Positions 12,523 to 60,204 of a DNA stretch of 60,204 nucleotides are shown here, piece by piece (position 1 is the first letter of the stretch; the number at the start of each line of letters is the position of its first letter). A model generated the notes under the pieces. The model saw only the letters and a program-made list of their open reading frames with translations, did no database searches and was not told where the DNA came from. Source of the DNA: Deinococcaceae bacterium. Its GTDB lineage: Bacteria; Deinococcota; Deinococci; Deinococcales; Trueperaceae. Both the position numbers and the translations under genes were made by a program. The stretch lies in assembly GCA_040256005.1 (NCBI GenBank), contig JBDZWC010000001.1:1-60204 (forward strand), read 5' to 3'.

Positions 12523-12566
12523 GTCGTTCGGCGCCGATCGAGCCGTCCGTTGGTGTTCGCCGTGGC

Positions 12567-16237: not shown

Positions 16238-16248
16238 GCCGACCGGGC

Positions 16249-17052: not shown

Positions 17053-17104
17053 GAGCCCAGGGTACTCCGGCGGGACGCGGCCGGTACACGGCTCGCGGGC
17101 GAGG

Positions 17105-18190
17105 TCAGAAGAGACCCGGCTGCTCAGAGCTTCCGGGTACCCGGAACGCGGACGCGTCGAGCGACCTGCGGTCCCTGTTGAGGCCGAGGCGCCTGCAGGT
17201 GAGGTGGAAGAGGTCCCTGACCCGCTCCGCATTCTCGCCCGAGCCCTTCATGCGGCGGCCGAAGACGCTGTCGGCCACTCGGCCGCCGTGAGCTTCCCTC
17301 ACACGGTTGAGCACCTTGTCCTTCCGCAGCGGGTAGTTCGTCTCCAGCCACTCCTCGAACACCTGCGACACGGCGCCGGGCAGCCGGAGCAGCGTGTAGC
17401 TGGCGCTCTGAGCGCCAGCTGCGGCCACGGCAGCGAGGATGTCGGGGACCTCGTGATCGGTGAGGCCCGGGATGATGGGCGCGACGTTCACGCCGACCGG
17501 CACACCGGCCTCGGCGAGCCGCGTTACCGCGGCCAACCGGTTCGCGATCGTGCTAGTGCGTGGCTCCAGCTTCGCGCGCAGCCCCTCGTCCAACGTGGTC
17601 ACCGATACCGCCACGTGCGCTCCGTTCCAGGCGGCCATCTCGGCTAGGACGTCGAGATCGCGCGTGACGAGGGCGTTCTTGGTGATGAGGCCCACCGGGT
17701 TCCTGAACCGAGCCAGCACCTCCAGTACGGAGCGGGTGATCTTCAGCTTGCGCTCGATGGGCTGGTAGGGGTCCGTGACGCCGGAGATGGCGATGACCTG
17801 CGGCGTCCAGTTGGGAGACCGCAGACGTCGCTCCAAGAGGGCGGCCGCGTTGCGCTTGACGAGGATGACGCGCTCGAAGTCGAGGCCGGCCGAGAAGCCC
17901 AGGTACTCGTGCGTCGGCCGGGCGTAGCAGTAGGCGCAGCCGTGCTCACAGCCGCGGTATGGGTTGATGCTGACGTCGAAGCCGATGTCCGGGCTGTTGT
18001 TGCTGGCTACCGCCGACCGCGAGGTGTCGTCTAGGTAGCGGGTTCTGACGTGGAGGTCGTCCTCGCTGACCTCCTCCAGGTCGAGCTCCACCTCCAGCCG
18101 TGTGAACCGGTTGCCGGTGTTCAGTCGCGCGCCCCGGCCGCGATGGGCCCGGGGGTCGGGGAGAGCAGCCCGTTCGTCCTCGGCAGACAT
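17105..18190 (-). CDS. radical SAM protein (SplB / PA0069-like DNA-repair photolyase family)
   Basis: CxxxCxxC cluster motif in INPYRGCEHGCAYCYARP. Size and overall pattern match the COG1533-type family. Confidence 0.75.
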   Translation of the reverse strand: MSAEDERAALPDPRAHRGRGARLNTGNRFTRLEVELDLEEVSEDDLHVRTRYLDDTSRSAVASNNSPDIGFDVSINPYRGCEHGCAYCYARPTHEYLGFSAGLDFERVILVKRNAAALLERRLRSPNWTPQVIAISGVTDPYQPIERKLKITRSVLEVLARFRNPVGLITKNALVTRDLDVLAEMAAWNGAHVAVSVTTLDEGLRAKLEPRTSTIANRLAAVTRLAEAGVPVGVNVAPIIPGLTDHEVPDILAAVAAAGAQSASYTLLRLPGAVSQVFEEWLETNYPLRKDKVLNRVREAHGGRVADSVFGRRMKGSGENAERVRDLFHLTCRRLGLNRDRRSLDASAFRVPGSSEQPGLF

Positions 18191-19215: not shown

Positions 19216-21657
19216 CTATCGCGGCGAAGACCGCGACTCGGTCCAGCGTCCACCCACCTGCACGTGCGGCACCCACGCCACGCCGAAGAAGCGTACGGCG
19301 ATGTCCCGGGTCGTCGGCCTGACGACGACCTCCTCGAGCTGGATCGCCTCGGGACGCACGGTGCCGGCTTCCAGCGCCTCCAACTCGGCCTGTAGCTCAC
19401 TTTCCAGGTCGGCGTACTGGCGTCGAGCGTCCTCCAGCCTCTCCTTGGCTCTCTGCACGTCTCCGAAGTCCTTGACACCCGTCGACGCCTTGTTGAGCGT
19501 CGTCGACAGCGAGCGGCGACCTCCGAAGATCGCCCCGATGACGTTCCCCGCCACGCTCGCAGCCCGTGCCTGGAACTGTTGCTGTTCGCGCGAGACCGCT
19601 TGTTCCTCGCGCAGCATGCGGCGCTCGACCGTGTCGAGCCTGGAGGCGTACCTGGACCTCAGCCTGGCGATCGCCTCGTCACGCAGCTCGCGGGCAGCTT
19701 GAGCGCAGCGTAGCCGGAACTCCTTCTCGCTCTCGGAGGCCTGCGCGGTGAGCTTCGTCGCCGGGTCCCTGAAGAGGCGCAAGGCACCCTCCGTGCGCAG
19801 CCAGCGCTCGAACAGTTCCTGCCAACCCTTCACGTCCTTCGGTCCTAGTGGTACCGCCGCCAGCGGTGCGAAGGCCGAGCCCGGCAGCGGACCGCCGAGC
19901 GCCCCATCGAGGTCGACCGCGACGGCTTCCGCGCGGGACCACTCGACGGGAGACGGACCCTCCACGGGTTCGAGGCGCAGCGCAACCCTGCGCTCTTCGT
20001 CGACCCCGTGCGTCTGGGAATGGTAGTAGACGTCCGCCACGCCCAGCAGGAACGGGAAGTACCTGACGCCCTCTTCTCCTGGGGCAGGAGGCAGGAAGAC
20101 CTCGGGCAGGTGCGGAGGCAGGACGGGTCGTGAGACGTCTGCCGGCGCTGTGGGGGCGGCCTCCGACCGGGCGATGGGCCGCGGTGTTCCCGCCGCGATC
20201 GTGGACCGCGGGCCCTCGGCAGGCACCCGGCCCTGCTCCGCCGACATCGTCGACTCCGCGGCGAGCCCGGCCGCGGCGAGACGACCGATCTGCTGCCTGG
20301 ACAGGGGGCCTGCCAGGTACGACATCGCCCAGCGGGTCTGGAACACGACAGGCTCGGACCGGTGCACGGAGCGCACCACGAACGTCCTCTTGGGCAGGGA
20401 CGAGATCGTCGCCCCCAGCGCCGCCACGTCCGTTCCGTCGTCCGCGGAGCGGAGACCGTCGAGCAGCCTCTGTCTGTCCCTGTCGGTCTGCAGCCTGCCG
20501 ATGAACCATGTGCCCGCGTTGGACAGCGCCTTGTAGTCGAGGTCGACGGGGTTCTGGGTCGAGAGGGCGAGCCCGACGCCGAAGGCGCGAGCCTGTTTCA
20601 GCAAGGTGAGAAGGGGGCGTTTGGTGGGAGGCTCCGCGACGGGCGGCATGATCCCGAAGAGCTCGTCGACGTACACGAGGGCTCGCAGGCTCGTGGTGCC
20701 CGTCAGCGAGCGCGTCCAGGCGACGACCTCGGAGAAGAGGAGCGTGAGGAAGAAGGTCCGCTCGGCGTCGCTGAGGTGACTGATGGTGATGACCGCGATG
20801 CGCGGTTTGCCGTCGCGACCGTAGAGGATCTCCTGGAGGTCGAGGGGCTGCCCCAGCGTCCAAGCCGCGAAGCTCGGAGATGCCAGCAGAGCGTTCAGAG
20901 CTAGCGCCAGCTTCGTCCTCTCGGGAGAGGGGAAGACGGTCTCCAGGTCCATGACGCCCAGCCGCGTCACCGGCGGTTCCTGCACCGCCCTCACCAACGC
21001 GGCGAGGCTCAGTTCCTGACCTTCCCGCCACGAGGCGTCTATTACCGCGGAGATCAGTAGATGCTCGCGACCGAGGGGATCGGCGTCGCGCCCGACCAGG
21101 GCGAGCAGGCTCGCTGTCGTGTTGGCGAGCTTCTCGGCCAGCGCCTCGGCGTCCTCCATCACCGCTGCCGGTGGCGGCGCGAACGACGACAGCACAGAGA
21201 GTGGTGTCCCGGCAGTCGAACCCGGTGTGTACACGGTCACGTCGGCCGAGCCCTTCAGACGCTCGATGCGATCGGGCCCCTGGCCCCAGGACGCCAGTCC
21301 TTCCCGCCAGCGCGACGCGACTCCCTCGGCATAGACAGACATGTCTGTACCCTCGCGTTCCGCCTCGCGAGGGTCTATCCACGGAGCGAAGTCCTGCGCC
21401 GCCAGATCGGGGAACCGCAACGCCAGGTTGCCCATGTCGCCCTTGGGGTCCACCACGAGTACGGGGATGCCGTCGAGCGCGGCCTCCTCGATGAGCCCCA
21501 CGCCCAAACCGGTCTTCCCACTGCCCGTCATGCCGACGATGACCGCGTGCGTCGTCAGGTCGGAGGCGTCGTACATGAGCGGCTCCGGCGTCCGTTCGAA
21601 GCCGTCGTCGACTACCGCCCCCAGGTAGAAGGTGCCAAGGGCGTCGAGGTCTGTCAT
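19216..21657 (-). CDS. HerA/FtsK-superfamily P-loop ATPase (DUF87-like) with a long C-terminal coiled-coil region
   Basis: I chose ATG 21657 (MTDLDALGTFYLG). Walker A is GMTGSGKTG and Walker B is ALVYVDELF. The C-terminal ~330 aa are Arg/Glu-rich helical sequence. The 214 codons upstream in the track ORF cross the divergent polA promoter region and look non-coding. Confidence 0.75.
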   Translation of the reverse strand: MTDLDALGTFYLGAVVDDGFERTPEPLMYDASDLTTHAVIVGMTGSGKTGLGVGLIEEAALDGIPVLVVDPKGDMGNLALRFPDLAAQDFAPWIDPREAEREGTDMSVYAEGVASRWREGLASWGQGPDRIERLKGSADVTVYTPGSTAGTPLSVLSSFAPPPAAVMEDAEALAEKLANTTASLLALVGRDADPLGREHLLISAVIDASWREGQELSLAALVRAVQEPPVTRLGVMDLETVFPSPERTKLALALNALLASPSFAAWTLGQPLDLQEILYGRDGKPRIAVITISHLSDAERTFFLTLLFSEVVAWTRSLTGTTSLRALVYVDELFGIMPPVAEPPTKRPLLTLLKQARAFGVGLALSTQNPVDLDYKALSNAGTWFIGRLQTDRDRQRLLDGLRSADDGTDVAALGATISSLPKRTFVVRSVHRSEPVVFQTRWAMSYLAGPLSRQQIGRLAAAGLAAESTMSAEQGRVPAEGPRSTIAAGTPRPIARSEAAPTAPADVSRPVLPPHLPEVFLPPAPGEEGVRYFPFLLGVADVYYHSQTHGVDEERRVALRLEPVEGPSPVEWSRAEAVAVDLDGALGGPLPGSAFAPLAAVPLGPKDVKGWQELFERWLRTEGALRLFRDPATKLTAQASESEKEFRLRCAQAARELRDEAIARLRSRYASRLDTVERRMLREEQAVSREQQQFQARAASVAGNVIGAIFGGRRSLSTTLNKASTGVKDFGDVQRAKERLEDARRQYADLESELQAELEALEAGTVRPEAIQLEEVVVRPTTRDIAVRFFGVAWVPHVQVGGRWTESRSSPR

Positions 21658-21882
21658 GTCACTCCTCTGGTCCTGCCGCACTGCGACCCGAGGGTCGAGT
21701 CCTTCGCGCCACCATACCGGCCCTGACGAGGCCTGCTGCCGTCCCGGCCGGGTCGGACCCGGATGGTAGAATCGTGAGCCGTACCCGCCGGGGTCCTCCG
21801 CGCGCGCATCCCAATGGCAAGGGGGCGACCGTCGGCGGGCGAGCGGTAGCCGCTGTCCCGCGCCGAAGACGAGAGGTAACCA

Positions 21883-24657
21883 GTGAAGACCTTCTACATC
21901 ATCGACGGGCACGCCCAGCTCTTCCGCGCCTACTACGCGCCGTTCCGCGACCTGACGGGTCCGGGCGGGGAGCCGGTGAAGGCCGTCTACGTCTTCACCC
22001 AGCTCCTCATCAACCTGCTGAAGAACATCCGTCCCGACTACGTCGCGATCGCGTTCGACGTCAGCGACTCGACGACCCTCAGGAAGGGTGACTTCGCCGA
22101 GTACAAGGCCAACCGGGACGCGGCACCGGACGACCTCCACGCTCAGTACGCCCGGATCAGGCAGGTCGTGGCAGCTATGGGCATCGCGGTCTACGAGAAA
22201 GAAGGCTACGAGGCCGACGACGTGATCGCGACGATCGCCGAGCGTCTGAAGGGGGAAGACGTCGAGCTGCGTATCGGCAGCAAGGACAAGGACCTGCACC
22301 AGATCCTGACGTCCAAGGTGAAGCTGTGGGACCCCTCCAGCGGCGAGCTGTTGGACCCGGAGTCCCTCATCGCGTCACGTGGCTACACACCGGAGCAGTC
22401 CGTCGAGGTACAGACCTTGACCGGCGACAGCACGGACAACATCCCTGGCGCGAAGGGGGTGGGCGTGAAGACCGCCGCGAAGCTCATCGCCAAGTACGGT
22501 TCTGCCGAGGCCGTGATGGAGAACCTGGAGGACCTCACACCCAAGCTCCGCGAGAACCTCGCGGCGCACAGGGAGGTCATGCCGCTGACGCGTCGCCTGG
22601 TCACGCTGGATCGCGACGCTCCGATCGAGTTCGACCTGCAGGAGTGTGTGACGCCTTCGGTCACTCGTCGTGACGTGCGTCAGGTGTTCGAGGAGCTGGG
22701 CTTCCGGACGTTCCTGGAGCAGATAGAGGTCACCGAGGCTGGCGCGGTAGCGCAGGCCACTCAGGAGACCCCCTCGGACGTCGAGGCCGCCGGCATGGAG
22801 GTCGACTACCGCGTCGTCAACACGCAGGAGGCCTTCGATGCGTTCGTGGCCGAGCTCGCGGCGCAGGAGAGCTTCGCTCTCGATACCGAGACGACCGCCC
22901 TCAGCGCGGTAGATGCCGACATCGTGGGCTACGTCTTCAGTTGGCAGGCCGGGACTGGTTGGTACGTCCCGGTCAGGGGAGAGCACGGCGAGACTCTAGA
23001 CCCAGACACGGTCGCCAAGGCGCTGAAGCCGATACTCGAGAACGAACGGACCCTCAAGGTAGGGCAGAACCTCAAGTACGACCTGATCGCGCTCGAGCGG
23101 GCGGGGATAGAGCTCAAGGGCCCGCTGTTCGACACGATGGTGGCCGCAGCGCTGTTGTACCCGGGTCGTCGGACGTACGGGATGGACGACCTAGCCCGCG
23201 ACCTGCTCGGGGTCATTACGACACCCATCACGGAGCTCATAGGGAAGGGCAAGGACCAGCTCTCGATGCTCCAGGTCCCGCTCGACCAGGTCGCGCGGTA
23301 CGCCGCGGAGGACGCGGACATCACTTGGCGCCTCTACGAGCTGCTGGCGAAGGGCATAGATGCCGAGCCGGTCGACGCCGCCGATGCTGCCAGCCGATCA
23401 CGTGCGGCTGGGACGGAGGCCAGCCTCAAGCAGCTGTTCACCGAGGTCGAGATGCCACTGGTACGCGTCCTTTCCGACATGGAACGGGCCGGAGTGAGCC
23501 TCGACGCGGACCTTCTCAAGAGCTACGCCGGCACGATCAAGCAGCGTATCGACGAGCTGCGCACCCAGATGGTCGACGTCGTGGGTGAGGAGTTCAACCC
23601 GGACTCGCCGAAGCAACTCTCCGAGATCCTCTTCGACCGGTTGGGCATGCGGGTGGTCAAGACCACCAAGACCGGCCGGTCGACGGACGCGGAGGTGCTC
23701 GAGACCCTGGCGGCCGAGACCGACCACCCTCTCCTTCCCCTGCTCCTCGAGTACCGCGAGCTCAACAAGCTGCTCGGCACCTACCTGCTGCCCTTGCCCG
23801 GGTACCTCAGCCCCACCACGGGCCGGCTGCATGCGTCGTTCCACCAGACGGGCGCGGCCACCGGCAGGCTCTCCTCCTCCGACCCGAACATCCAGAACAT
23901 CCCGATCCGCACGGCGGCCGGTCGCGAGATCCGCCGGGCGTTCCGCGCGCGCGACGACGACAGCGTGCTCATCACCGCGGACTACTCGCAGGTGGAACTG
24001 CGCATGCTGGCGCATTTCTCCGACGATGCCGAGCTGACCAAGGCCTTCAACGAGGGCCTCGACATCCACGCGTACGTCGCCTCACAGGTGTTCGGCGTGC
24101 CCATCGAGGAGGTCACGTCGGACCAGAGGCGCGTGGCCAAGACCGTGAACTTCGGGATCGTCTACGGCCAGACGGCGTTCGGCCTGGCCCGGACGCTGCG
24201 TATCCCGCGCGGTGAGGCGCAGAGCTTCATCGACGAGTACAAGGAGCGCTACACCGGCCTGGACAAGTTCCTGCGGACCTGCGTGGCGGAGGCCGAGGAC
24301 CTTGGTTACGTCACCACGATCATGGGCAGGCGCCGCGACATCCCGGAGATCCGGTCGCGAAACCGCAACCAGCGTTTCCTGGGAGAGCGCCTGGCGATCA
24401 ACACCGTGATCCAAGGCAGCGCCGCCGACCTCATCAAGGTCGCGATGATCAAGCTCAACCAGCGGCTCAAGACCGAGTGCGAGGGCGCGCATCTACTGAT
24501 CCAGGTGCACGACGAGCTCGTCCTCGAGGCCCCGCGCGGGGTGTCGCAGAGGACCCTAGAGGCCACCGTAGACACGATGAGCGGCGCCCTGCCGCTCAGG
24601 GTGCCGCTCAAGGTCGATGCCGCCATCGGGCCCAACTGGCTCGAAGGCAAGTCCTAG
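21883..24657 (+). CDS. polA: DNA polymerase I (5'-nuclease, 3'-5' exonuclease and polymerase domains)
   Basis: GTG start. The 5'-nuclease N-terminus is IIDGHAQLFRAYYA. ExoI motif FALDTETT. Pol motif A DYSQVELRMLAH, motif B RRVAKTVNFGIVYG, motif C QVHDELVLE. Confidence 0.95.
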   Translation: MKTFYIIDGHAQLFRAYYAPFRDLTGPGGEPVKAVYVFTQLLINLLKNIRPDYVAIAFDVSDSTTLRKGDFAEYKANRDAAPDDLHAQYARIRQVVAAMGIAVYEKEGYEADDVIATIAERLKGEDVELRIGSKDKDLHQILTSKVKLWDPSSGELLDPESLIASRGYTPEQSVEVQTLTGDSTDNIPGAKGVGVKTAAKLIAKYGSAEAVMENLEDLTPKLRENLAAHREVMPLTRRLVTLDRDAPIEFDLQECVTPSVTRRDVRQVFEELGFRTFLEQIEVTEAGAVAQATQETPSDVEAAGMEVDYRVVNTQEAFDAFVAELAAQESFALDTETTALSAVDADIVGYVFSWQAGTGWYVPVRGEHGETLDPDTVAKALKPILENERTLKVGQNLKYDLIALERAGIELKGPLFDTMVAAALLYPGRRTYGMDDLARDLLGVITTPITELIGKGKDQLSMLQVPLDQVARYAAEDADITWRLYELLAKGIDAEPVDAADAASRSRAAGTEASLKQLFTEVEMPLVRVLSDMERAGVSLDADLLKSYAGTIKQRIDELRTQMVDVVGEEFNPDSPKQLSEILFDRLGMRVVKTTKTGRSTDAEVLETLAAETDHPLLPLLLEYRELNKLLGTYLLPLPGYLSPTTGRLHASFHQTGAATGRLSSSDPNIQNIPIRTAAGREIRRAFRARDDDSVLITADYSQVELRMLAHFSDDAELTKAFNEGLDIHAYVASQVFGVPIEEVTSDQRRVAKTVNFGIVYGQTAFGLARTLRIPRGEAQSFIDEYKERYTGLDKFLRTCVAEAEDLGYVTTIMGRRRDIPEIRSRNRNQRFLGERLAINTVIQGSAADLIKVAMIKLNQRLKTECEGAHLLIQVHDELVLEAPRGVSQRTLEATVDTMSGALPLRVPLKVDAAIGPNWLEGKS

Positions 24658-48455: not shown

Positions 48456-49559
48456 TTGACCGAAGCCGGGACGATCGATCAGCCGGGTCTCTTCGACCTG
48501 CGGGAATACTCGTCGCCAGACCGTGTGGACGGAAGCGTCGTACTCACTGAACCAACCCGCGGCGACCCGCTGCCTCGCGAAGGCGACTCCGGTGCGGTGC
48601 CGCCCACCTCGGGCGCAGACGCCCCGTCCTCCGCGGCCACCCCGGAAGACAACGAGCGCTGGGAGGCGCTCGTCGCCGACCTGGAAGCGACCGGGCGTTA
48701 CCGCGTCCTACGCCGCTTCGACGAACGGCTCGACGATCCGCCGGCGCCGGTCGTTGGCTCGGGGGTCCGCAAGGGCGTCTACCTCGACGTCGAGACGACC
48801 GGGCTCATGGCCCATGACCGCATCATCGAGCTGGCGATGCTCGTCTTCCATTACGACGAGACTGGCAGGGTCGTACACGTGACCGAGGCGTTCGATCGCC
48901 TGGAGGACCCGGGACGCACGATCCCGGCCGACGTCGTCTCCCTCACAGGCATCACGAACGACATGGTGAGGGGTCAACGTATCCTCGACGAGGAGGTAGC
49001 GCGGCTACTGGATGGGGTCGACCTGGTCGTGGCGCACAACGCCGGGTTCGACCGCCAGTTCGCTGAGGCACGCTTCCCGTTCTTCAGCGAGGTCGACTGG
49101 GCCTGCTCGATGGCCGACGTCGACTGGTCGGCCGGGGGTCTCAGGAGCCGCCGGCTGGAGAACCTGGCGCTGGCGAAGGGGTACTTCTACCAGGCTCACC
49201 GCGCGATCTACGACTGTCACGTCGCGCTGGGCCTGCTACGGATGCCCATCCGCGAGTCCGGACCACCGGCCTTCGCCGACCTGCTGCAGCGCTCGGCGGC
49301 CGTGTGGGTGAGGCTCTGGGCCGAAGGCAGTCCGTTCGAGAAGAAGGACGACCTCAAGGCTCGCGGGTACCGCTGGAGCGGGCAGGCCAAGGCCTGGTGG
49401 AAGGACCTGCCCGCCTCGCAACACGAGGCCGAGGTCGAGTGGTTGGCGGACAACGTCTACCCCAGACGGCGCGCTCTCCCCTTCCTGACCATCACCCCTA
49501 GGAACCGCTACTCCCGCCGCCTGCCGGAGGCTCCGCCGGCGAGCGCCGAGAGGCTCTGA
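48456..49559 (+). CDS. DEDDh 3'-5' exonuclease (DnaQ/epsilon-like) with disordered N-terminus and Trp-rich C-terminal domain
   Basis: ExoI is YLDVETTGL, ExoII is VAHNAGFDRQF, ExoIII is HRAIYDCHV. The C-terminal domain contains KARGYRWSGQAKAWWKDL. TTG start. Confidence 0.8.
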   Translation: MTEAGTIDQPGLFDLREYSSPDRVDGSVVLTEPTRGDPLPREGDSGAVPPTSGADAPSSAATPEDNERWEALVADLEATGRYRVLRRFDERLDDPPAPVVGSGVRKGVYLDVETTGLMAHDRIIELAMLVFHYDETGRVVHVTEAFDRLEDPGRTIPADVVSLTGITNDMVRGQRILDEEVARLLDGVDLVVAHNAGFDRQFAEARFPFFSEVDWACSMADVDWSAGGLRSRRLENLALAKGYFYQAHRAIYDCHVALGLLRMPIRESGPPAFADLLQRSAAVWVRLWAEGSPFEKKDDLKARGYRWSGQAKAWWKDLPASQHEAEVEWLADNVYPRRRALPFLTITPRNRYSRRLPEAPPASAERL

Positions 49560-49572
49560 GCGCGCCATTGCG

Positions 49573-50133
49573 TTATTGCGCGAGCGCTTGAGCGAGTTGC
49601 TCGCGCGCGGAGCTAAGTTGGGACTGGTCGACCGGGCCGCCCCTGGCGAGGGCGACCTCCAACGCCGTGAACTCCCGTTCACCGACGGGCAGCAGCTCCC
49701 GGTTGCCCCAGGCGGTGGCAACGTGGTTGAGGACCAGCGCCAGTTCCTGGTCGCCAAGGTGACCGAACGACGGCATGAGCCCGTCGTAGCTCCGGCCCGC
49801 CACGTTCACGTCGCCGGAGAGGCCGTGCAGTAACACCCTGACCAGGTACCACCGCCCACCGTCAACGCCCAGAAGCTCCGGGACCACTGCCGCCAAGGGA
49901 GGGTACGCCCCCACCAGACCGTCTCCCGTGTAGCCGTGGCAAGCGGCGCAGTCGGCCTCGTAACGGGCCCGGCCCGCCGTCGTGTCCAACGTGGCTAGGT
50001 CCCTGCCCACGGGCACCGGTGACGAAGCGTCGCCGATCGACGTGAACGACGCTGCCGCGGCGCACACCGCCACAGCGCATAGACCGAGCGCCATCCACCG
50101 CAGGCCCGCTGGACGTCCGGCCGTACGCCTCAC
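49573..50133 (-). CDS. class I c-type cytochrome (secreted)
   Basis: Heme motif CAACHG. Signal-like MALGLCAVAVCAAAA. GTG 50133 overlaps the polX TGA (GTGA). ATG 50094 is an alternative start. Confidence 0.7.
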   Translation of the reverse strand: MRRTAGRPAGLRWMALGLCAVAVCAAAASFTSIGDASSPVPVGRDLATLDTTAGRARYEADCAACHGYTGDGLVGAYPPLAAVVPELLGVDGGRWYLVRVLLHGLSGDVNVAGRSYDGLMPSFGHLGDQELALVLNHVATAWGNRELLPVGEREFTALEVALARGGPVDQSQLSSAREQLAQALAQ

Positions 50134-51872
50134 GCCTTGGCGAGGAACGCCAGTACCTCGGGCAGGGGCCGCGTGTTGACGACGTCTTCCGCCGTGAGCC
50201 AGGCCCGCCTGGCCTGATCGACGCCCAGGCGCATCACGCCGAGGCCACGCACCGAGTGGGCGTCGGAGCCGATGAAGACCTTGAGCCCCGCAGCGACGGC
50301 CGAGCGCAGGTGGACGTCGGGGAGGTCCAGTCGACGTGCCGACGAGTTGTGTTCGACCGCCACGTGGTTGGCCGCACAAGCGGCGAACACCTCGGTCAGG
50401 TCGATCGCTATGGGGTCCCGTTGACCGATCTGACGGCCCAACGGGTGCGCGTAGACGTTGACGCGCGGGTGCGACAGCGCCTTGACGACGCGCTCGGTCT
50501 GTACCGACTCGGGTAGCTCGAAGAAGCTGTGTACGCTCACGATGACGACGTCGAGGTTCGCCAACTGCTCGTCGGTCACGTCGAGGCTGCCGTCCTTAAG
50601 TATGTCGACCTCCATACCGCGCAGTACGCGGATGTCTTCCCGGCCGGCTATCAACCCTGCGAGCTCGGCGTGCTGGCGCCTCAGCTTGTCGTCGTCCAGT
50701 CCCCCTTGCAACGCGAGCGACCCGCTGTGGTCGGTGATCGCCATGTACTCGTAGCCCAGTGCGGCGCACCCTTCGATCATCGCTGCCAAGCTGTCGCGTC
50801 CGTCGGACCAGGTCGAGTGCATGTGGAGATCGCCACGCAGGTCCGTCAGCTCGATCAGGTCGGGTAGGGCGCCCGCCGCGGCCCCGGCGACCTCTCCCCT
50901 GCCTTCTCGCAGCTCCGGCGGCACGAACGCCAGACCGAGTCCGGCGTAGATCTCCTCCTCCGTGGCGCCAGCGAGCCGCTTGCCGCCGGGTCGGTCCTTG
51001 CCTGCCGAGCCGCCCGCGAACAACCCGTACTCGTTGAGGTGCCAGCCCTTGTCCAGGGCCAGCTGCCTCAGCTCGACGTTGTGCTCCTTGGAGCCCGTGA
51101 AGTACAGGACCGCCGCACCATAGCTCGCCTCCTCGACCGTCCTCAGGTCGACCTGGAGGCCGCTCCGCAGGTCCACGCTGGTCTTGGTCTCACCCGTGCC
51201 CAACACCGCAGCGACCTCGTCGTACGTGGCCAGCGCAGCGTGCAAGGCGGCCGGCTCAGTGGCGACGGCCACCAGGTCGACGTCACCGACGCTCTCCTTG
51301 CGACGCCGGTAGGACCCTGCGACCTCGAGGCGCCGGACGCCGGGCACCGCCAACAACCGCTCGAGCAGCGGGACGAGAACGGCGTCCACGTGGCCGAGAG
51401 GAAGGCGCCCGACGTTCCGCCTGTAGCTGTCTATGCCGCGGAGGATCCGCTCGGCGGACTTGGCACCGAAGCCCTTCAGCTCGGTCAGGCGGCCCGCCCG
51501 CGCAGCGGCCTCGAGGTCGTCGACCGACTGCACGCCCAACGCCCTCCAGAGCGTCGCTGCCTGCTTGGGTCCGACCCCCTTCACGCGCGTGAGGTCGAGC
51601 AGACCCACCGGCACCCGCTCCTCGAGCTCGATCAGCTGCGGCATGACGCCCGTTTCGACCAGGGTACGTACCTTGGCCGCTATCTCTCTCCCTACTCCCT
51701 TGATCGCGGTGAGATCCGCCCCGCCCGCCAACAGCTCCTCGACCGGGGTCTCTATGTCCCTGATCGTCGCCGCCGCGTTCCGATACGCGCGCACCTTGAA
51801 CGGGTTGTCGCCATCGAGCTCCGAGAGGTCGGCCAACCGGTCGAGCTGCCTGGCTATCTCGGCGTTGCTCAT
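50130..51872 (-). CDS. polX: family X DNA polymerase with C-terminal PHP domain
   Basis: N-terminus MSNAEIARQLDRLADLSELDGDNPFKVRAYRNAA (HhH, 8-kDa-like). Pol-beta-like core with GSYRRRKESVGDVDL. PHP motifs DLHMHSTWSDG and ITDH. Confidence 0.9.
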   Translation of the reverse strand: MSNAEIARQLDRLADLSELDGDNPFKVRAYRNAAATIRDIETPVEELLAGGADLTAIKGVGREIAAKVRTLVETGVMPQLIELEERVPVGLLDLTRVKGVGPKQAATLWRALGVQSVDDLEAAARAGRLTELKGFGAKSAERILRGIDSYRRNVGRLPLGHVDAVLVPLLERLLAVPGVRRLEVAGSYRRRKESVGDVDLVAVATEPAALHAALATYDEVAAVLGTGETKTSVDLRSGLQVDLRTVEEASYGAAVLYFTGSKEHNVELRQLALDKGWHLNEYGLFAGGSAGKDRPGGKRLAGATEEEIYAGLGLAFVPPELREGRGEVAGAAAGALPDLIELTDLRGDLHMHSTWSDGRDSLAAMIEGCAALGYEYMAITDHSGSLALQGGLDDDKLRRQHAELAGLIAGREDIRVLRGMEVDILKDGSLDVTDEQLANLDVVIVSVHSFFELPESVQTERVVKALSHPRVNVYAHPLGRQIGQRDPIAIDLTEVFAACAANHVAVEHNSSARRLDLPDVHLRSAVAAGLKVFIGSDAHSVRGLGVMRLGVDQARRAWLTAEDVVNTRPLPEVLAFLAKA

Positions 51873-51897
51873 GGCACGGGGGGCGGGCGCCTCGCCA

Positions 51898-54223
<2,326 letters not shown>

Positions 54224-54266
54224 ACTACCTTAGTAAATGAGGTGGCCGTGTGATCTGTCCTACAGA

Positions 54267-54932
54267 TCAGGCCAGGCGCTGCACGCAGGCGGGGCTGTCG
54301 AACCTCGGACTGCCCACGGACCTGTCAACGGGATGCATGGTAAGGACGCCGGCGTCGGCCGGATCGAGCAGGTCCTCGAGTCTTGTCGGGTCCTTCTCCT
54401 CGACGTCGAGCCAACGGCCCCACTCCCCCTTCTCGAGGACCACGGGCATCCTGTCGTGCAGCTCTCGCATCTCGACGTTGGCGTCCGTGGTCAGGATGGT
54501 GCACGACGCGATTGGCGCCTCACCGTTGCGGTTGACCGCCCAGAGGCCGGCGAAGGCCAGCGGCTGCCCATCCGTCCGGTACACGTAGTAGGGCTGCTTA
54601 GCCCCGCCTTCGGTACGCCACTCGTAGAAGCCAGAGGCCGGCACCAGGCAGCGTTGCGACCTCATGGGGTCACGGAACGACGGCTTGTCCGCCGCGCTCT
54701 CCGCGCGCGCGTTGAACAGGTTCGACCTGAAGTCCTTGGGGTCCTTCACCCAGTGCGGCAGCAGACCCCAGCGCATCTCCTCCATGACCCTGCTCCCGTC
54801 GGAACGCTGTCTGATCACGGGCACGGTGCTCGTCGGGGCGATGTTGTAGCGCGGCGTGAGCGGGTAGGTCTCGACCTCGAAGAGCGTTGCCAGGTCGTCC
54901 TCGTGGCTGTACAGCGTGTAGCGCCCGCACAT
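54267..54932 (-). CDS. SOS response-associated peptidase (SRAP/YedK family, abasic-site DNA-protein crosslink sensor)
   Basis: N-terminal MCGRY with catalytic Cys2. YNIAPT and WGLLPHW motifs. 221 aa. The ATG directly abuts the rep stop codon. Confidence 0.9.
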   Translation of the reverse strand: MCGRYTLYSHEDDLATLFEVETYPLTPRYNIAPTSTVPVIRQRSDGSRVMEEMRWGLLPHWVKDPKDFRSNLFNARAESAADKPSFRDPMRSQRCLVPASGFYEWRTEGGAKQPYYVYRTDGQPLAFAGLWAVNRNGEAPIASCTILTTDANVEMRELHDRMPVVLEKGEWGRWLDVEEKDPTRLEDLLDPADAGVLTMHPVDRSVGSPRFDSPACVQRLA

Positions 54933-56438
54933 CTAAGCCGCCTCCTCCAGCGCGACCAGGATCGACTCCCGCGCCTGGGCAGAGTACTCCGACAGCACGT
55001 TCTCGGTGCCGACGTAGGCCTTCACGTCACGGAGGTGGGAGGGGAAGGTCACGAAGCCGTGGCTCGCCATCACGTCCGTGCGCTTGGATTCGTACAGCGT
55101 GCCGCGCCAGTCGTCCGCGCCGATTCGCTCCAGGGTGAAGCGGTGCAGGGTGGCCTGCATGATCGTATGCACCAGCTCCCGGTTGTCTGGCGTCATCGCC
55201 TGCCAAGCGGCGCTGGCCAGGCGCTTGCGTGCTTGGTGGAACGCCTCGAGGATGCTGGCGGCGATGCTGCGCGCCTCGTCGGCCGTCATCGCCGCGTCCG
55301 CAGCTTCGTCGGCGATCTGCTCGGCGGGCGGTTCGACGCCCTGCGTCAGCAGGCTGTTGACGAAGCCGGCCAGGTTGTAGATCGGCCGTCCTGCCCCCTC
55401 CGCCTTCGCCTGCAGCTGGCGTGCGTAGGCGACTATGCGCAGCACGCGGTCGGCGCCGTGATGCCCGACGGTACGGTCGGCATCCTGAGCCCAGCCGATC
55501 TCCCTGAGCGCGTCCGTGGCTTGCAGCTCTCGCAGCAGTCGCTGCTTGTCCGCGGGGCGCGGCACCCGCTTCGCGAGGCTGGCCGGTAGCCGGATACGTG
55601 GCTTGAAGACGTCGTTCTTCTCGATACGGAAGGTTACGCGCTGGTACTTGCGTCCGACCTTGGCCGCTTCGTAGTCGAAGACGAGGCATGTGTACTTGGC
55701 GAACTCCTGCTGCGCCCTGTCGAGCACGTACTTGAAGTCCTTGAAGCGCTCGTACTTGCCGTCGAGCCCGAGTCGCAGCTTGAGGTCGTCGACGTCGAAG
55801 GTCAAGCGTCGCCTCTCGCCGGCGTAGCTCGCGGTGTACAGCACCTCGAAGAGCCTCATGCTGTTGAAGCTCTCGAAGCTCAGGAGCTGGTCCGTAGGGA
55901 TGATGCTGAAGTCACGACGCAACTGCAAGAGGTACGGCTTGAGCTTCTCGTGGATCTTCAGCTCTATGCAGGCCATCTGATCCTTGCTGTCGCGGCCGTT
56001 CTCGTAGCGCGCCTCGGAGACCCACTGGAACATCACCCAGTCCCCGTTGGGCTCCTTGACTTGGACCGTCTGCTCGAGCAGCTCCCGTGCCGACTCCTCG
56101 ATCCGCGAGTAGATGCTCTTCCCCTTGATGTTGAACAGCTGAGCGAACTCCCAAGCCGTGATGCGGATGGGCTGGAGGTCCTCGTCGTTCCGGGTCACGT
56201 CCGACAGCGCCAGTACCAGCAGGCGCTTGCTGAGGATCCCCATCTCCTGCCGGCTGAGCGCCAGCGGGTTCGCTTGAGTCACCGACAACTTCGAGCCGCC
56301 GCGGTCTAGGGCTCGCGTCTCCCCTCTCCGGCCCCTCCCGGGACCCGCCGTGCCCCGCCTGCCCTTCACAGCGAGCGGCTCTACCTCCACCGCGGTAACC
56401 TCATCCACGGGCGTCGTACCTCTGTTCGAAGCGTCCAT
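54933..56438 (-). CDS. plasmid-type replication initiator (Rep_3/RepB-like winged-helix initiator) with a long C-terminal extension
   Basis: The core (aa ~50-300) reads like Rep_3 initiators: VTQANPLALSRQEMGILSKRLLVLALS, ITAWEFAQLFNIKGKSIYSRIEESARELL, FESFNSMRLFEVL. Iterons lie immediately upstream. A ~45-aa disordered N-terminus and a ~200-aa helical C-terminus are unassigned. Confidence 0.85.
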   Translation of the reverse strand: MDASNRGTTPVDEVTAVEVEPLAVKGRRGTAGPGRGRRGETRALDRGGSKLSVTQANPLALSRQEMGILSKRLLVLALSDVTRNDEDLQPIRITAWEFAQLFNIKGKSIYSRIEESARELLEQTVQVKEPNGDWVMFQWVSEARYENGRDSKDQMACIELKIHEKLKPYLLQLRRDFSIIPTDQLLSFESFNSMRLFEVLYTASYAGERRRLTFDVDDLKLRLGLDGKYERFKDFKYVLDRAQQEFAKYTCLVFDYEAAKVGRKYQRVTFRIEKNDVFKPRIRLPASLAKRVPRPADKQRLLRELQATDALREIGWAQDADRTVGHHGADRVLRIVAYARQLQAKAEGAGRPIYNLAGFVNSLLTQGVEPPAEQIADEAADAAMTADEARSIAASILEAFHQARKRLASAAWQAMTPDNRELVHTIMQATLHRFTLERIGADDWRGTLYESKRTDVMASHGFVTFPSHLRDVKAYVGTENVLSEYSAQARESILVALEEAA

Positions 56439-56471
56439 CCCGCCCTTCCAAGCCCGGAGACCTTCCTGCGC

Positions 56472-56501
56472 ATCCTACGTCCGGTGGGAATGAACCGTCA
56501 A
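56472..56501 (-). promoter_or_regulatory. candidate rep promoter
   Basis: On the minus strand, TTGACG (56501-56496), 18 nt, TAGGAT (56477-56472). The -10 lies ~34 nt upstream of the rep ATG. The -35 is flanked by degenerate iteron copies, consistent with autoregulation. Confidence 0.4.
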
Positions 56502-56726
56502 CGCTTTCCCGCTAGTTCCCCCTTTCCCGGGGAGAGCGCATCCAGGTTCCCCATTTTCCCCGGTTCGGTCCCCCGTCTTCCCCGGTTGGTACCGCCGCTT
56601 CCCCGCCGAGGTCCCGCCGCTTCCCCGCTCCGGTACCCGAACCTTCCCGCCAGGGTACCCCCGCTGTCCCGCTCAACGTCGAACAGCCCCGTCCTGAACG
56701 CACTTCCCGGCGTTCCCTAATGGGAA
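56497..56726. repeat. iteron array (six 22-bp-phased units plus degenerate copies) ending in an inverted half-iteron palindrome
   Basis: Units start at 56545, 56567, 56588, 56610, 56632 and 56654, each GGT(A/C)CC..(C)TTCCCG. Degenerate CTTTCCCG copies sit at 56504-56511 and 56522-56529, and CTTCCCG at 56703-56709. The palindrome TTCCCTAATGGGAA is at 56713-56726. Confidence 0.85.
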
Positions 56727-56812
56727 TCTGAAATGGAGCTGAAGAACCTCAACAACCCAAAGCTTGCTGTTGCTCTCTTCCAGAAGTCAGCCAGATCTCG
56801 AGATCGAGACGC
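56713..56812. other. AT-richer stretch, candidate DNA-unwinding element
   Basis: My hand count over these ~100 nt gives about half G+C, against clearly higher G+C on both sides. It is adjacent to the iteron array and has no convincing ORF. Confidence 0.4.
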
Positions 56813-56910
56813 CCTCGGTTCCGCAAGTACCGGCCGTTTCCCACTTCGGAAGGCGCGGGCTGCAGCCCGAAACCTCGCTGGCTCGGGCCGATGAACGCAC
56901 CCAGACCGGC

Positions 56911-57018
56911 GGTACCCCCTCTCCCCTACCGGGCATAGGCGCCGGCTACAGGTCCGCATGGCGGCCCGGACATGGCGCTCGCGCAGCACCAGGCACAAAC
57001 GGGAAAGCGACGGTACTC
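56911..57018. repeat. two isolated iteron copies in opposite orientations
   Basis: GGTACCCCCTCTCCCC (56911-56926) has the same orientation as the left array. GGGAAAGCGACGGTACTC (57001-57018) has the same orientation as the right cluster. Confidence 0.6.
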
Positions 57019-57511
57019 GCGGACCGGCTGCGGCCTGCGCATGGTGTCGATGCCGCCATAACGATATGGCGTTTCACCGGGACGCTCCGACTCCGGTGGC
57101 CGAGGCGGACCTGTGATGTAGAGATCGGACCCGCTGTGGAGTCCCGGAGCTGCGGGAGAGCCGACTACTCACCGCCAAGCCTCCTCATTGGCCCTGCGCG
57201 GGAGGTTCGCGGGCCAGCGAAGGCGACGAGGGAGGTCGGCTGCGGGCGCTGCCGCGCCGACGTGCTGACGTTGGCCCTTCCCCACCGGAGCCGGTCCCGA
57301 GGTACACGCTCGTTCGCGGCCTACCGGATGTAGCGCCGACACAGAGCGTCCGATCCTGCGACGCAATAGCGTTATGGCGCTCACCAGCGCCCCGGTCCTC
57401 GGGAACGCGGAGCCGCGGCCGGGCGTCGCGTACGGCTCCGGAGGGCGCGGGTAGAATCACGAGCGTGACACCTCCAGCCGAGACCACACCACTTGTCGAT
57501 GGCGGGTGTGG

Positions 57512-58300
57512 ATGCGGGTCCTGACGTTCTTCAACCATGCCGGTGGCGTGGCGAAGACGAGCACGGTAAGGGACGTCGGCTACGTCCTCGGCGAGCGCGG
57601 CTATCGCGTCCTGTTGATCGACGTAGACCCTCAAGCGAACCTGACGCGGTGGTTGGGCGTGGAGGACGTCGACCTCGCCGATACGATCTATCCCGGCGTC
57701 ATGAGCGCGGCTGAGGACGAGGACGTGGACGATCAGGAACTGGTACTGCCCAGGCCGCGCACCGTTCACGGCATGGACTTGATACCCAGTCAACTGAACG
57801 TGGCGATCCTGGAGCGGGAGATCCTGAGCGTGTTCATGGGCGTCGTGCGGCTACGGGAAGCCGTCAGGAAGCTCGAGGGCTACGACTTCGTCCTGATAGA
57901 TCCGCCGCCGAGCCTGGGTCAGTTGTCGGCGTTGGCGGTCGTGGCGGCTGATGGAGTGGTAGTGCCGCTACCGACGAACAGGAAGGGCCTCGACGGGCTC
58001 GCGACCGTGATCAAGATGGTGCGGGAGTACCGGAAGGCGGCGCCCAGACTCGACCTAGAGTTCTTCGTGCTCACGCAACACGACCGGCGGACCCGCCACG
58101 ACCGGGAGAGCCTCGACGCGATCGGGCGGCAACTCGTCAGCATCGCGCCGGTCTCCACGCCGCTGGGTAGCCGGCCGGCGTACTACTCGGACGCGCAAGT
58201 AGCGGGGGTGCCCGTACCGGTGTACGCTCCCGGGAGCGATGCGGACATGGAGATCAGGACCGTCACGGACGAGCTTCTCGAGGCGCTGGGGAACGGCTGA
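57512..58300 (+). CDS. parA: ParA-family partition ATPase with an atypical deviant Walker A
   Basis: MRVLTFFNHAGGVAKTSTV...LLIDVDPQANLT...VLIDPPPSL. ATG 57512 (GTG 57506 also in frame). The TGA shares one base with the parB ATG. Confidence 0.85.
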   Translation: MRVLTFFNHAGGVAKTSTVRDVGYVLGERGYRVLLIDVDPQANLTRWLGVEDVDLADTIYPGVMSAAEDEDVDDQELVLPRPRTVHGMDLIPSQLNVAILEREILSVFMGVVRLREAVRKLEGYDFVLIDPPPSLGQLSALAVVAADGVVVPLPTNRKGLDGLATVIKMVREYRKAAPRLDLEFFVLTQHDRRTRHDRESLDAIGRQLVSIAPVSTPLGSRPAYYSDAQVAGVPVPVYAPGSDADMEIRTVTDELLEALGNG

Positions 58301-59247
58301 TGGCTAAGAAGCGGGGATCCGTCGACAGGTCCGCGGTGTTCGAGGCCATCCTCGGCGGGTTGACCGAAGAGGAGGCCGTCGAGAGCGGGACGACCTTGCC
58401 GCTGCGCGCCATCAGGTTCAACGACCGCCAGCCGCGCAAGCACATCAGCGAGGATGGCTTGGAGGAGCTGGCCGCGAGCATCAAGGACAGAGGCGTGCTG
58501 GAGCCCGTGATCGTGAGGCGCGTCGGGGGCGGGTTCGAGTTGGTTGCGGGCGAGAGGCGCACGCGGGCGGCTGCGCTGGCGGGGCTGGAGGAGATCCCCG
58601 CGATCATCGTCGACATAGATGACCGCGAGGCGCTCGAGATCGCGATCATCGAGAACCTGCAACGGGAGGACCTGAACGCGGTAGAGGAGACAGAGGCCGT
58701 GTTGGGGCTGCTCGAGATGGAGCTCGATGCGGGTCGGCGCGAGGTCACCCAGGTCCTCCAGGCGCTGTACAACGAGGAGCGCGGACGTATCACGGGCCGG
58801 AAGGTGAGCGACGGTGAGCGCAAGAGCGTGCAGGCGCTGTTCAAGCGGTTGGGCCGCTTCAGTATCAGTTCCTTCGTGAGCAACAGGCTGCCTATCCTCG
58901 AGTTCCCCGAGAGCTTGCTGGCAGCCGTTCGCGAGGGGAGACTGGCGTTCACGAAGGCACAGGCGATCGCCCGGGTGGCCGATGCGGACGACAGGGAGCG
59001 CCTGCTCAGTGTGGCGGTGAGCGAGGATCTGTCCCTTAGTCAGATACGCCGCCGGATCACCGAGCTGAGGGCCGGGCGTGCGGCGCTGGCGCAGCGGGGA
59101 GCGGCGAGCCACCTGGATGCTACGCACCGATTGGTGTCCAACACGAAGCGGCTTTTGAACAGGCGACGCTTGGTCGCGCTCGCGCCCGAGAAGCTAACGC
59201 GGGTGAACGAGCTGCTCGAAGCGTTGCGGGCTGAGCTGGAAGAGTGA
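58300..59247 (+). CDS. parB: ParB/Spo0J-family partition protein
   Basis: ParB N-terminal box I/II with an arginine patch (PVIVRRVGGGFELVAGERRTRAA), HTH region, and C-terminal dimerisation helix. Confidence 0.9.
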   Translation: MAKKRGSVDRSAVFEAILGGLTEEEAVESGTTLPLRAIRFNDRQPRKHISEDGLEELAASIKDRGVLEPVIVRRVGGGFELVAGERRTRAAALAGLEEIPAIIVDIDDREALEIAIIENLQREDLNAVEETEAVLGLLEMELDAGRREVTQVLQALYNEERGRITGRKVSDGERKSVQALFKRLGRFSISSFVSNRLPILEFPESLLAAVREGRLAFTKAQAIARVADADDRERLLSVAVSEDLSLSQIRRRITELRAGRAALAQRGAASHLDATHRLVSNTKRLLNRRRLVALAPEKLTRVNELLEALRAELEE

Positions 59248-59325
59248 GGCCGCGGCGCTACGGGAGGCGGCAGCGGCGGTGGCTATGGTGGCCGTATCTG
59301 CGCGCAGCGCAGCCTGGAGGGCTAG

Positions 59326-59805
59326 ATGCTGGACGTCGGAACCGCGGCACCTGATTTCGACCTCGAAGACCAGGCAGGGCGGGTACATAAGCTCAGCGAG
59401 CAGCGGGGGAGATGGGTCGTGCTGTACTTCTACCCGAAGGACGATACGGCCGGCTGCACCAAGGAAGCGTGCTCGTTCCGGGACGGTCTACCGGCGTTCG
59501 CCGGCTTGGACGCGGTCGTACTGGGGGTCTCCGCGGACGACGTCGGAAGCCACAACGCGTTCGCTGGAAAGTACGGTCTCAACTTCCCCCTGCTAGCCGA
59601 CGTCGACAGACGGGTCATCGACGCGTACCAAGCCTGGGGAGAGAAGGAGCGGGACGGCGAGCGCTACGAGGGCATCTTGCGGATCACCTACCTGATCGAT
59701 CCCAGTGGCCGGATCGCCCAGACGTGGACCGTAGTGGATCCCGAGTCGCATGCAGCAGAGGTACGAGAAGCGTTGGAGCTCCACGTGGGCAGGGTGTCGG
59801 CCTGA
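59326..59805 (+). CDS. bcp: thiol peroxidase / peroxiredoxin Bcp
   Basis: APDFDLEDQAGRVHKLSEQRGRWVVLYFYPKDDTAGCTKEACSFRD contains the peroxidatic and resolving Cys in CTKEAC. Confidence 0.9.
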   Translation: MLDVGTAAPDFDLEDQAGRVHKLSEQRGRWVVLYFYPKDDTAGCTKEACSFRDGLPAFAGLDAVVLGVSADDVGSHNAFAGKYGLNFPLLADVDRRVIDAYQAWGEKERDGERYEGILRITYLIDPSGRIAQTWTVVDPESHAAEVREALELHVGRVSA

Positions 59806-59816
59806 GAGCACGCTAG

Positions 59817-60204
59817 CGGGAGACCGAGGGTACTCGGGCCCGGCGAGCGTTCGCGAGCCCAGGCGCGCGTCCAGGTAGGGTCATCGCGCGGCGCTTGCGG
59901 TGCGCGACCGGGCGCAAGTGGGGAAGATGGGGAACCGAACGTCAACGGGGCACGAGGGGGAAGGCTGCGGTACTCGTGGAGCGGTTCTAGCGAGACCGCC
60001 GCCGGGGAACCCGGGGTACCGACAGCGAAGGGGGAACGCAGCGGTACTCACGTGAGCGGTGTGCCAGCCGGCGCGGTCGTGAAAGGGGAGACCGGCGGTA
60101 CTCGCGCCGAGGCCATCTTGGGCCTAGTGGGGAACTAAGGGTACCGGGCGGGTACCGGGCGCCGCGCCGGGGTACGCCGGGCGGTGAGGTTCGAGTGTTC
60201 CCGG
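59817..60204. repeat. second, dispersed cluster of the same iteron family in inverted orientation (truncated by the window end)
   Basis: Copies at 59817-59835, 59920-59936, 59956-59975, 60003-60020, 60030-60049, 60084-60103 and 60129-60145 read GGGGA(A/G)-N4-6-GGTAC(T/C)C on the plus strand. Extra GGTAC(C) half-sites sit at 60151-60156 and 60171-60175. Confidence 0.8.

Follow-up and report, generated by a model that had tools for sequence, protein, structure and literature searches.

We analyzed a 60,204-nucleotide (nt) stretch of DNA, hereafter the window, that forms positions 1 to 60,204 of contig JBDZWC010000001.1 (GenBank assembly GCA_040256005.1) from a bacterium of the Trueperaceae (Deinococcota), and focused on a cluster of short repeats, or iterons, at its right-hand end. 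The cluster belongs to a replication and partition module that holds, from left to right, rep, encoding an initiator of the Rep3 family (54933..56438, − strand); an array of iterons (56546..56670, − strand), here called the origin array; an AT-rich stretch (56700..56810); parA (57506-58300, + strand); parB (58300-59247, + strand); bcp, encoding an AhpC/TSA peroxiredoxin (59326..59805, + strand); and the repeats in question, here called the distal cluster, which begin 12 bp past the bcp stop codon. parA and bcp were assigned from Pfam-type domains, and ~700 bp of non-coding DNA separate the AT-rich stretch from parA. The two arrays lie ~3.1 kb apart and enclose the AT-rich region, candidate parS sites, parA, parB, and bcp. 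An initial annotation of this DNA had also placed rep between them; parAB and bcp are indeed inside, but rep precedes the left array and is hence outside. It had correctly described the distal set as inverted relative to the left array, with distal copies on the + strand and origin-array copies on the − strand.

Within window positions 59818-60144, the distal cluster contains the motif aAGT-GGGRA-N6-GGTAC-y exactly seven times, always on the + strand, the 16-nt cores starting at 59818, 59920, 59958, 60004, 60032, 60086, and 60129; all seven copies listed by the initial annotation were recovered, each on the + strand. We scored them with a 22-nt weight matrix trained on 613 copies from related loci, from which the two loci closest to the window were left out, and against this relatives-only matrix they reached 16.6-25.2 bits. 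Copies were classed by the base that follows GGTAC. Iteron 1 (59818..59833; GGGAGACCGAGGGTAC, then TC; 19.6 bits), iteron 3 (59958..59973; GGGAAGGCTGCGGTAC, then TC; 22.1 bits), iteron 5 (60032..60047; GGGAACGCAGCGGTAC, then TC; 22.6 bits), and iteron 6 (60086..60101; GGGAGACCGGCGGTAC, then TC; 20.4 bits) belong to the T-class. The C-class comprises iteron 2 (59920..59935; aagtGGGGAAGATGGGGAACcg; 25.2 bits), the top match to the family consensus, iteron 4 (60004..60019; GGGGAACCCGGGGTAC, then CG; 16.6 bits), and iteron 7 (60129..60144; tagtGGGGAACTAAGGGTACcg; 24.1 bits), the final full copy. Iteron 7 runs into a series of + strand GGTAC half-sites (60139..60175) that includes an 11-bp tandem duplication, GGGTACCGGGC twice, at 60139-60160. 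The duplication adds one GGTAC half-site after the last full copy, and the unit is single in a near-identical public contig (8818-8828 in L001).

That contig, L001 (GCA_040255665.1), was found via the Bcp protein; it is 99.8% identical to window positions 51321-60204 and continues 8 kb further, and it settles where the cluster ends. The initial annotation had suggested that the cluster might be larger past the window edge. No further iteron of at least 8 bits lies beyond the edge in L001, save one 11.8-bit match inside dnaE2. A paiB-like (FMN_bind_2) gene starts ~30 bp past position 60204 instead, and therefore the cluster is not larger than the window shows. Another public contig, L055, is identical to window positions 53210-60115 and ends inside the distal cluster.

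The motif is specific to the rep-par module and is not a general intergenic repeat, because it is rare both in the rest of the window and in the flanks of related loci. At a threshold of at least 8 bits the matrix found 16 matches in window stretch 56546-60144, seven of them in the distal cluster, and just two weak matches (11 and 14 bits) on both strands of the remaining 56 kb; in the flanks of related loci, 475 kb in all, its density was 0.013 hits per kb at 10 bits or more. A common repeat occurring elsewhere in the genome would have undermined the original interpretation, and no such repeat was seen in the window or in those flanks. The simple pattern GGGRA-N6-GGTAC, allowing one mismatch at most, matched the window 28 times, compared with 5.9 ± 2.3 in shuffled sequence, and 15 of the 28 matches fell within 56546-60144. 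When 59806-60204 was shuffled 2000 times with dinucleotide composition preserved, matches of at least 16 bits averaged 0.003 per shuffle, with a maximum of 1, against seven observed; chance clustering of the distal copies is excluded by these shuffles.

Start-to-start spacings in the distal cluster are 102, 38, 46, 28, 54, and 43 bp. The irregular spacing of 27-103 bp given by the initial annotation was right in setting the cluster apart from the 22-bp phase of the origin, with a measured range of 28-102 bp, but the spacing is not simply irregular. In the distal clusters of relatives, 39 of the 88 neighbor distances fall at 28-34 bp with a mode at 30 bp, and further groups lie near 40, 60-67, and 100 bp. 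Close relatives share a layout like that of the window, i-100-i ... i-30-i-55-i-40-i (28, 54, and 43 bp in the window), and the ~100-bp spacing between the first two copies is common to the window, L004, L005, L006, and L011. A Rayleigh test on the distal spacings gave no clean 10.5-bp periodicity; the 30-bp mode dominates, and periodicity was dropped as evidence.

All copies, distal and origin alike, share one register: GGGRA occupies positions 0-4 and GGTAC positions 11-15. The shorter spacer once ascribed to the left-hand copies proved to be an alignment artefact. The two sub-classes proposed alongside it survive in part: what separates them is whether C or T follows GGTAC and whether position 3 is G or A, not spacer length. 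Across the family, origin-array copies carry C after GGTAC in 72% of cases and T in 19%, whereas T follows in 54-60% of dispersed copies, in which the commonest triplet after GGTAC is TCG; the 5′ flank AAGT is also better kept in dispersed than in origin copies. Position 3 and the base after GGTAC are perfectly linked in the window but weakly so in relatives, where the association is significant in right-hand clusters alone (odds ratio 2.6, p = 0.02) and absent overall, and we therefore treat the sub-classes as graded. Dispersed copies have median scores of 21-22 bits against the family matrix, compared with 17.5 bits for origin copies, even though the latter were the largest training group. 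Near-consensus isolated sites beside a packed, weaker array are the pattern expected if the former serve as high-affinity sinks and the latter as a cooperative origin.

The origin array itself contains six copies at a phase of 21-22 bp (17.8-21.7 bits), is found beside rep in every relative, and is accompanied by a degenerate seventh copy at 56515-56530 (− strand). The adjacent AT-rich stretch at 56700..56810, a candidate DNA-unwinding element, has a GC content of 51% at 56700-56799 against a background of ~68%, the lowest of the region, and carries a conserved TAATGGGAAT element and an inverted repeat, CAACA...TGTTG. The AT-rich gap beside the origin of relatives holds the same motifs, namely a TAATGGGAAT/TTAAAGGGAAT element and the inverted repeat CAGCAAC...GTTGCTG; taken together, the two conserved elements resemble a structured region for unwinding. 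The predicted replication origin, beside rep, consists of the 22-bp-phased array (56546-56670) and the adjacent AT-rich DNA (56700-56810). Phased direct repeats of ~20 bp beside rep, together with an AT-rich element, characterize iteron-type theta replicons, and this layout is present in the window and in ~45 relatives. The sole sigma-70-like promoter match in 56400-60204, TTGACG-18-TAGGAT at 56472-56501 on the − strand, lies just upstream of rep and abuts the array, an arrangement consistent with autoregulation by Rep via the array.

Rep has the domain structure of a tandem winged-helix initiator, with winged-helix domains 1 and 2 (WH1 and WH2) followed by a conserved helical C-terminal domain. 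It matches Rep3_N (87 bits) and Rep3_C (40 bits) in Pfam, both above the cut-off, and a profile built from 26 Rep homologs matches pPS10 RepA and F RepE in the PDB. An AlphaFold model (mean predicted local distance difference test score, pLDDT, 75) contains the two winged-helix domains at residues 68-274 and superposes on the RepE-iteron and R6K π-iteron complexes with target-normalised template modelling scores of 0.58-0.66. Rep is about twice as long as RepE or π. The additional length is an all-helical C-terminal domain of ~215-230 residues (residues ~286-500, window 54933-55580; pLDDT 85-92), which had no Pfam match and no PDB match visible in a whole-protein fold search dominated by WH1-WH2 matches. 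Searches of PLSDB with DNA and protein found no close relative; the top Rep matches were 24-28% identical, too distant for an annotated plasmid to serve as a guide.

In the co-crystals of RepE and π, a WH1+WH2 monomer contacts an asymmetric, bipartite iteron. The iteron motif described here likewise lacks symmetry: the centers of its two conserved blocks, GGGRA and GGTAC, lie 11 bp apart. We took both iteron sets as Rep sites because they share one motif, because of the fold of Rep, and because a bipartite motif suits a WH1+WH2 monomer. The distal repeats are thus very likely to be Rep sites, a prediction based on the identity of their motif with that of the origin array and on the modeled fold of Rep.

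We assessed how widely this arrangement is conserved in a scan limited to one genome per species, which yielded 52 loci (L-numbered). The Rep family forms ~100 sequence clusters at 57-90% identity, all from metagenome-assembled genomes of Trueperaceae and other Deinococcota, and nearly all 52 loci share the gene order ligA-SRAP-rep-parA-parB-bcp...dnaE2. The loci follow a common plan: rep; five to seven − strand iterons at 21-22 bp; a gap of ~130-260 bp, AT-rich in all relatives inspected; one to five further − strand iterons; one to three + strand iterons; one to three 16-bp palindromes; parA and parB; and, in the clade with the distal cluster, four to nine + strand iterons after bcp. Sufficient sequence after bcp was available for 30 loci, of which 21 have the distal cluster and nine have none. 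In a Rep+ParA tree, the nine cluster-less loci form a single sister clade, and all 21 others fall in one large Trueperaceae clade. Because the loci without the cluster group in this way, the distal cluster must have arisen or been lost once and then been retained across a deep radiation.

Within the clade that has it, the distal cluster is conserved in a manner specific to its motifs. Its copies in relatives lie 119 times on the + strand and seven times on the − strand, the few − strand copies always at the far end. In pairwise alignments of post-bcp DNA, motif positions are 63-82% identical and spacers 33-63%. Outside the motifs, the intergenic DNA after bcp aligned poorly in a multiple alignment; the one part that did align, the segment between the first two iterons, gave no convincing extra conserved element. 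In several relatives (L004, L008, L018, L020-L023, and L052), bcp and dnaE2 converge, and the cluster occupies the interval between their 3′ ends; since it is flanked by convergent gene ends, the cluster is not a promoter or operator in those loci. Neither the window nor any of the 21 relatives has an AT-rich dip in or beside the distal cluster: the minimum GC content over 40 bp has a median of 0.53 in distal clusters versus 0.35 at origins, and the corresponding values in the window are 0.57 and 0.42.

The initial annotation had described two iteron sets. Both are real, but two or three more copies lie between them: a T-class iteron at 56827..56842 (− strand; 24.7 bits) in the interval between the origin and parA, a weak iteron-like copy at 56912..56927 (− strand; 9.8 bits), and the first + strand iteron at 57001..57016 (24.8 bits). 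Iteron orientation flips only once, near 56930-57000, with all − strand copies to the left and all + strand copies to the right, so that the copy at 57001 marks the flip point. This copy lies 54 bp upstream of candidate parS 1 (57055..57070), GCCATAACGATATGGC, for which the family consensus is a perfect 16-bp palindrome, GCCATAACGTTATGGC; candidate parS 2, GCCATAACGCTATTGC on the − strand, lies at 57363..57378. The perfect palindrome is kept beside parAB in nearly all relatives, usually as two copies upstream of parA, and in some relatives it occurs inside coding sequence. A degenerate third palindrome lies at 49564-49579, between convergent genes ~7 kb to the left of rep, and its position is kept in several relatives.

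ParB is, by its predicted domains, of the chromosomal, CTPase type, with ParB_N carrying the GERRTRA motif and HTH_ParB; the motif ENLQREDLN was also noted. A conserved 16-bp palindrome near parAB that is tolerated inside genes is the usual signature of a loading site for a helix-turn-helix (HTH) ParB. The GCCATAACGTTATGGC palindrome is probably a parS specific to this replicon and makes a much stronger centromere candidate than the distal cluster. It is unlike the canonical chromosomal parS, TGTTTCACGTGAAACA, which is absent from the window even when up to three mismatches are allowed; a short palindrome also serves as parS on a Thermus megaplasmid (PMC10085754). With palindromic parS candidates and a CTPase-type ParB present, the par system would be complete without the distal cluster.

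Iterons and parS candidates also lie close together. In about 20 of 42 loci, a + strand iteron precedes the first parS candidate by 41-56 bp, the two favored distances, 43 and 54 bp, being one helical turn apart, and in one clade an extra + strand iteron abuts parS, 21 bp downstream of the parS start. This proximity hints at an interplay between Rep and ParB. In the sister clade without the distal cluster, all nine loci have one palindrome upstream of parA and two after bcp, one of which lies inside dnaE2. Alongside these post-bcp palindromes, sister-clade loci (L029, L035-L038, L045-L047, L049, and L050) carry one or two − strand iterons in the interval from parB to bcp; the two clades thus make different use of the DNA beyond the par operon.

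Given this architecture, we consider it probable, though by no means certain, that the distal cluster is an auxiliary Rep-binding locus, separate from the origin, that acts mainly in negative control of copy number. The distal sites would soak up Rep (titration), and once occupied they could pair with the origin array through Rep-Rep contacts. Pairing in cis would form a ~3.1-kb loop, looping out parS-parAB-bcp, while pairing in trans between sister copies would constitute handcuffing; as copy number rises, initiation would be shut off. We infer Rep binding, the lowering of copy number, and pairing at the distal cluster from its sequence and from analogy with known replicons. The cluster has the makings of a control locus, as it carries the consensus of the origin, lies outside the minimal origin, and has no unwinding element. 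Titration or handcuffing as in P1 and F, already put forward in the initial annotation, appears to be the best fit to the comparative evidence, which comprises conservation in 21 of 21 loci of the clade, footprint-like conservation of the motifs, the lack of an unwinding element, and the lack of any promoter requirement. One positional feature differs: control iterons in those plasmids flank the initiator gene, but here rep (54933-56438) lies outside the segment bounded by the two sets. Flanking of rep is a positional habit of P1 and F, not a mechanistic requirement.

Several points weigh against a control locus of this kind. The near-absolute orientation bias and the single flip near 56930-57000 are not explained by pure titration. 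The cluster appears dispensable for this type of replicon, as the sister clade (9/9 loci) lacks it, a pattern consistent with dispensability for replication. Because the motif is nearly invariant across the family, covariation cannot tie it to Rep over another conserved protein, and the lineage is known solely from metagenome-assembled genomes. Finally, iteron-like repeats upstream of parAB in Deinococcus radiodurans are reported to bind both ParB and DnaA in vitro (PMC7671480), a precedent that makes a role for ParB at the distal repeats conceivable.

How ParB might be involved can be envisaged in more than one way. The boundary of a partition complex might be formed by Rep, bound on the right to the distal cluster and on the left to the iteron at 57001 and those further left. 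As a roadblock, Rep would confine ParB clamps with cytidine triphosphate (CTP), loaded at the parS palindromes, to the ~2.8-kb parS-parAB-bcp segment. This is unlikely. Such a boundary might also couple ParB spreading to Rep occupancy, and it would be compatible with copy-number control. The CTPase-type N-terminal domain of ParB (ParB_N, GERRTRA) fits it, and there is precedent: in F, at incC/ori2, and in P1, Rep bound to iterons stops ParB from propagating (PMC6238139), and the spreading and binding of ParB2 on Vibrio cholerae chromosome 2 (Chr2) compete with RctB at regulatory sites (PMC6090056). In addition, every parS candidate of the cluster-bearing clade lies inside the iteron-delimited segment, the extra post-bcp parS of L026, L030, and L053 is proximal to the cluster, and about half of the loci have the + strand iteron 41-56 bp from parS. 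The argument is architectural alone, however; the sister clade carries parS sites behind bcp and within dnaE2 but no outer iteron cluster, which argues that a boundary is not generally needed, and seven sites exceed what a roadblock would require. A broader version, in which iterons and palindromic parS form one integrated replication-segregation control region at the origin of a Trueperaceae secondary chromosome rich in DNA-repair genes, strikes us as speculative and doubtful. In that arrangement, mirror-oriented, Rep-occupied sets would fence ParB loading, and mutual antagonism between the spreading of ParB-CTP and the occupancy of the high-affinity distal sites by Rep would couple copy-number control to segregation, a logic like that of Vibrio Chr2 but evolved independently with an enlarged Rep3 initiator and with the control iterons beyond the par operon. 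It is very improbable that ParB binds the distal cluster as all or part of the centromere, in a position like that of P1 parS or F sopC, an alternative that the initial annotation had also entertained. The cluster does lie downstream of parAB, and iteron arrays of D. radiodurans chromosome II and its megaplasmid are reported to bind their cognate ParB (PMC7671480). Yet a parS-type centromere for a dimeric HTH ParB is a short palindrome near parAB, whereas the distal repeats are asymmetric and of the same type as the origin iterons beside rep. The conserved palindrome GCCATAACGTTATGGC beside parAB, with two copies upstream of parA, fits such a ParB far better, and none of its kind occurs in 59800-60204 even at up to three mismatches.

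The strict orientation of the distal copies and the mirror arrangement of the iterons about one point suggest a direction-dependent function, and R6K provides a precedent for distant iterons that work by looping. Even so, a positive or origin-like role, whether as a second origin, as a looping activator in the manner of R6K α/β with γ, or as a polar replication-fork barrier that sets the direction or terminus, seems quite improbable. A secondary origin would have initiator sites adjoining an AT-rich element, and none of the 21 loci has such an element within the cluster or next to it; nor did we find a conserved non-iteron element between the copies. GC skew, calculated at scales of 3 kb and 1 kb, stayed flat beyond the module, and gene strand confounds it; it is uninformative here and was not used for origin placement. 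That the cluster is an operator or promoter for the downstream paiB-like gene, which begins shortly after it in the window and in L011, or else a non-functional relic or chance grouping, is scarcely credible. This reading is largely refuted by the convergent neighbors of the cluster in many relatives, by its retention across a deep clade with motif-specific conservation, and by the shuffles. A terminator scan found none after bcp, and no RNA family was detected when the entire window was compared with Rfam.

Comparison with characterized replicons places negative control by the distal cluster in a familiar setting. In F, the five iterons of incC, located downstream of repE, reduce copy number and act as an incompatibility determinant via titration and RepE-mediated looping between ori2 and incC (PMC13028717). 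Both F and the window have a second set of origin-type initiator sites outside the minimal origin, and their initiators are of the same fold family. The F sets, however, flank repE and lie ~1 kb apart, whereas here rep is outside, the sets lie ~3.1 kb apart, and they flank the unwinding element, the parS sites, parAB, and bcp. In P1, incA contains nine RepA iterons that act by titration and handcuffing, as described by Chattoraj and co-workers. In both systems the origin array is phased at two helical turns and the second array is looser and unevenly spaced; the control array of P1 is dispensable for replication. P1 differs in that incA lies between repA and parA, RepA is of another sequence family, and parS is downstream of parB, while the parS candidates here are upstream of parA.

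On V. cholerae Chr2, further iterons are present in ori2-inc, a distant titration locus holds another five, and ParB modulates initiator binding (PMC6090056). Like the replicon in the window, Chr2 is an iteron-type secondary replicon with housekeeping genes, interleaved parS, and an initiator enlarged beyond the WH1-WH2 core; its extra initiator sites outside the minimal origin restrain initiation, as those of the distal cluster would. No second type of site resembling the 39-mer was found here, only the graded C/T sub-class; there is also no Dam/GATC logic, the initiator is of another family, and the coupling to the cell cycle is a feature of Chr2. Within the phylum, the cisII/cisMP arrays of D. 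radiodurans, direct repeats adjoining parAB on secondary replicons, are implicated in replication and segregation (PMC7671480). These arrays have other repeat sequences and no identified Rep3 initiator and are reported to bind DnaA and ParB, whereas the repeats described here accompany a Rep3 gene and a separate palindromic parS candidate. In R6K, too, initiator sites lie kilobases from the main array: the distal sites at α/β are kilobases from the array of seven iterons and act through protein-mediated looping. Each of them is a single or half iteron next to a functional origin that has its own unwinding region; the distal cluster here has seven full copies and no AT-rich element. Our literature search found no work on iterons in Truepera. 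The distal cluster is a well-supported feature of an ordinary kind, in a lineage that is unstudied. Its mechanism would not be new, and the departure from P1 and F is one of position, with the par operon and parS between the iteron sets and not rep. If the proposed functions are correct, a full maintenance module, comprising the origin array, unwinding element, control iterons, replicon-specific parS, and parAB, has been mapped for a replicon family known only from metagenomes. Such a module would supply a parts list for vectors and mini-replicons in this radiation-resistant lineage, as well as a Deinococcota example with which to compare copy-number logic in P1, F, and Vibrio Chr2.

The wider gene content bears on the nature of the replicon. 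To the left of rep, the window encodes RarA/MgsA (14030-16237), a HerA-like ATPase (19216-22299), PolA (21883-24657), an RNase T-like exonuclease (48456-49559), PolX (50130-51872), LigA (51898-53946), and an SRAP protein (54267-54932). Beyond the window, L001 encodes PaiB, DnaE2, an ImuB-like protein, and LexA (8901-17117). The family is conserved in ~50 species-level Trueperaceae genomes, with polA, polX, ligA, and a lexA-imuB-dnaE2 cassette near the origin. A Rep3/iteron replicon with polA and ligA, whose gene order is kept in ~50 species-level genomes, suggests a secondary chromosome (chromid) and not a dispensable plasmid. Genes for DNA replication and repair are concentrated around this plasmid-type origin, at window positions 14030-53946 and in the continuation provided by L001.

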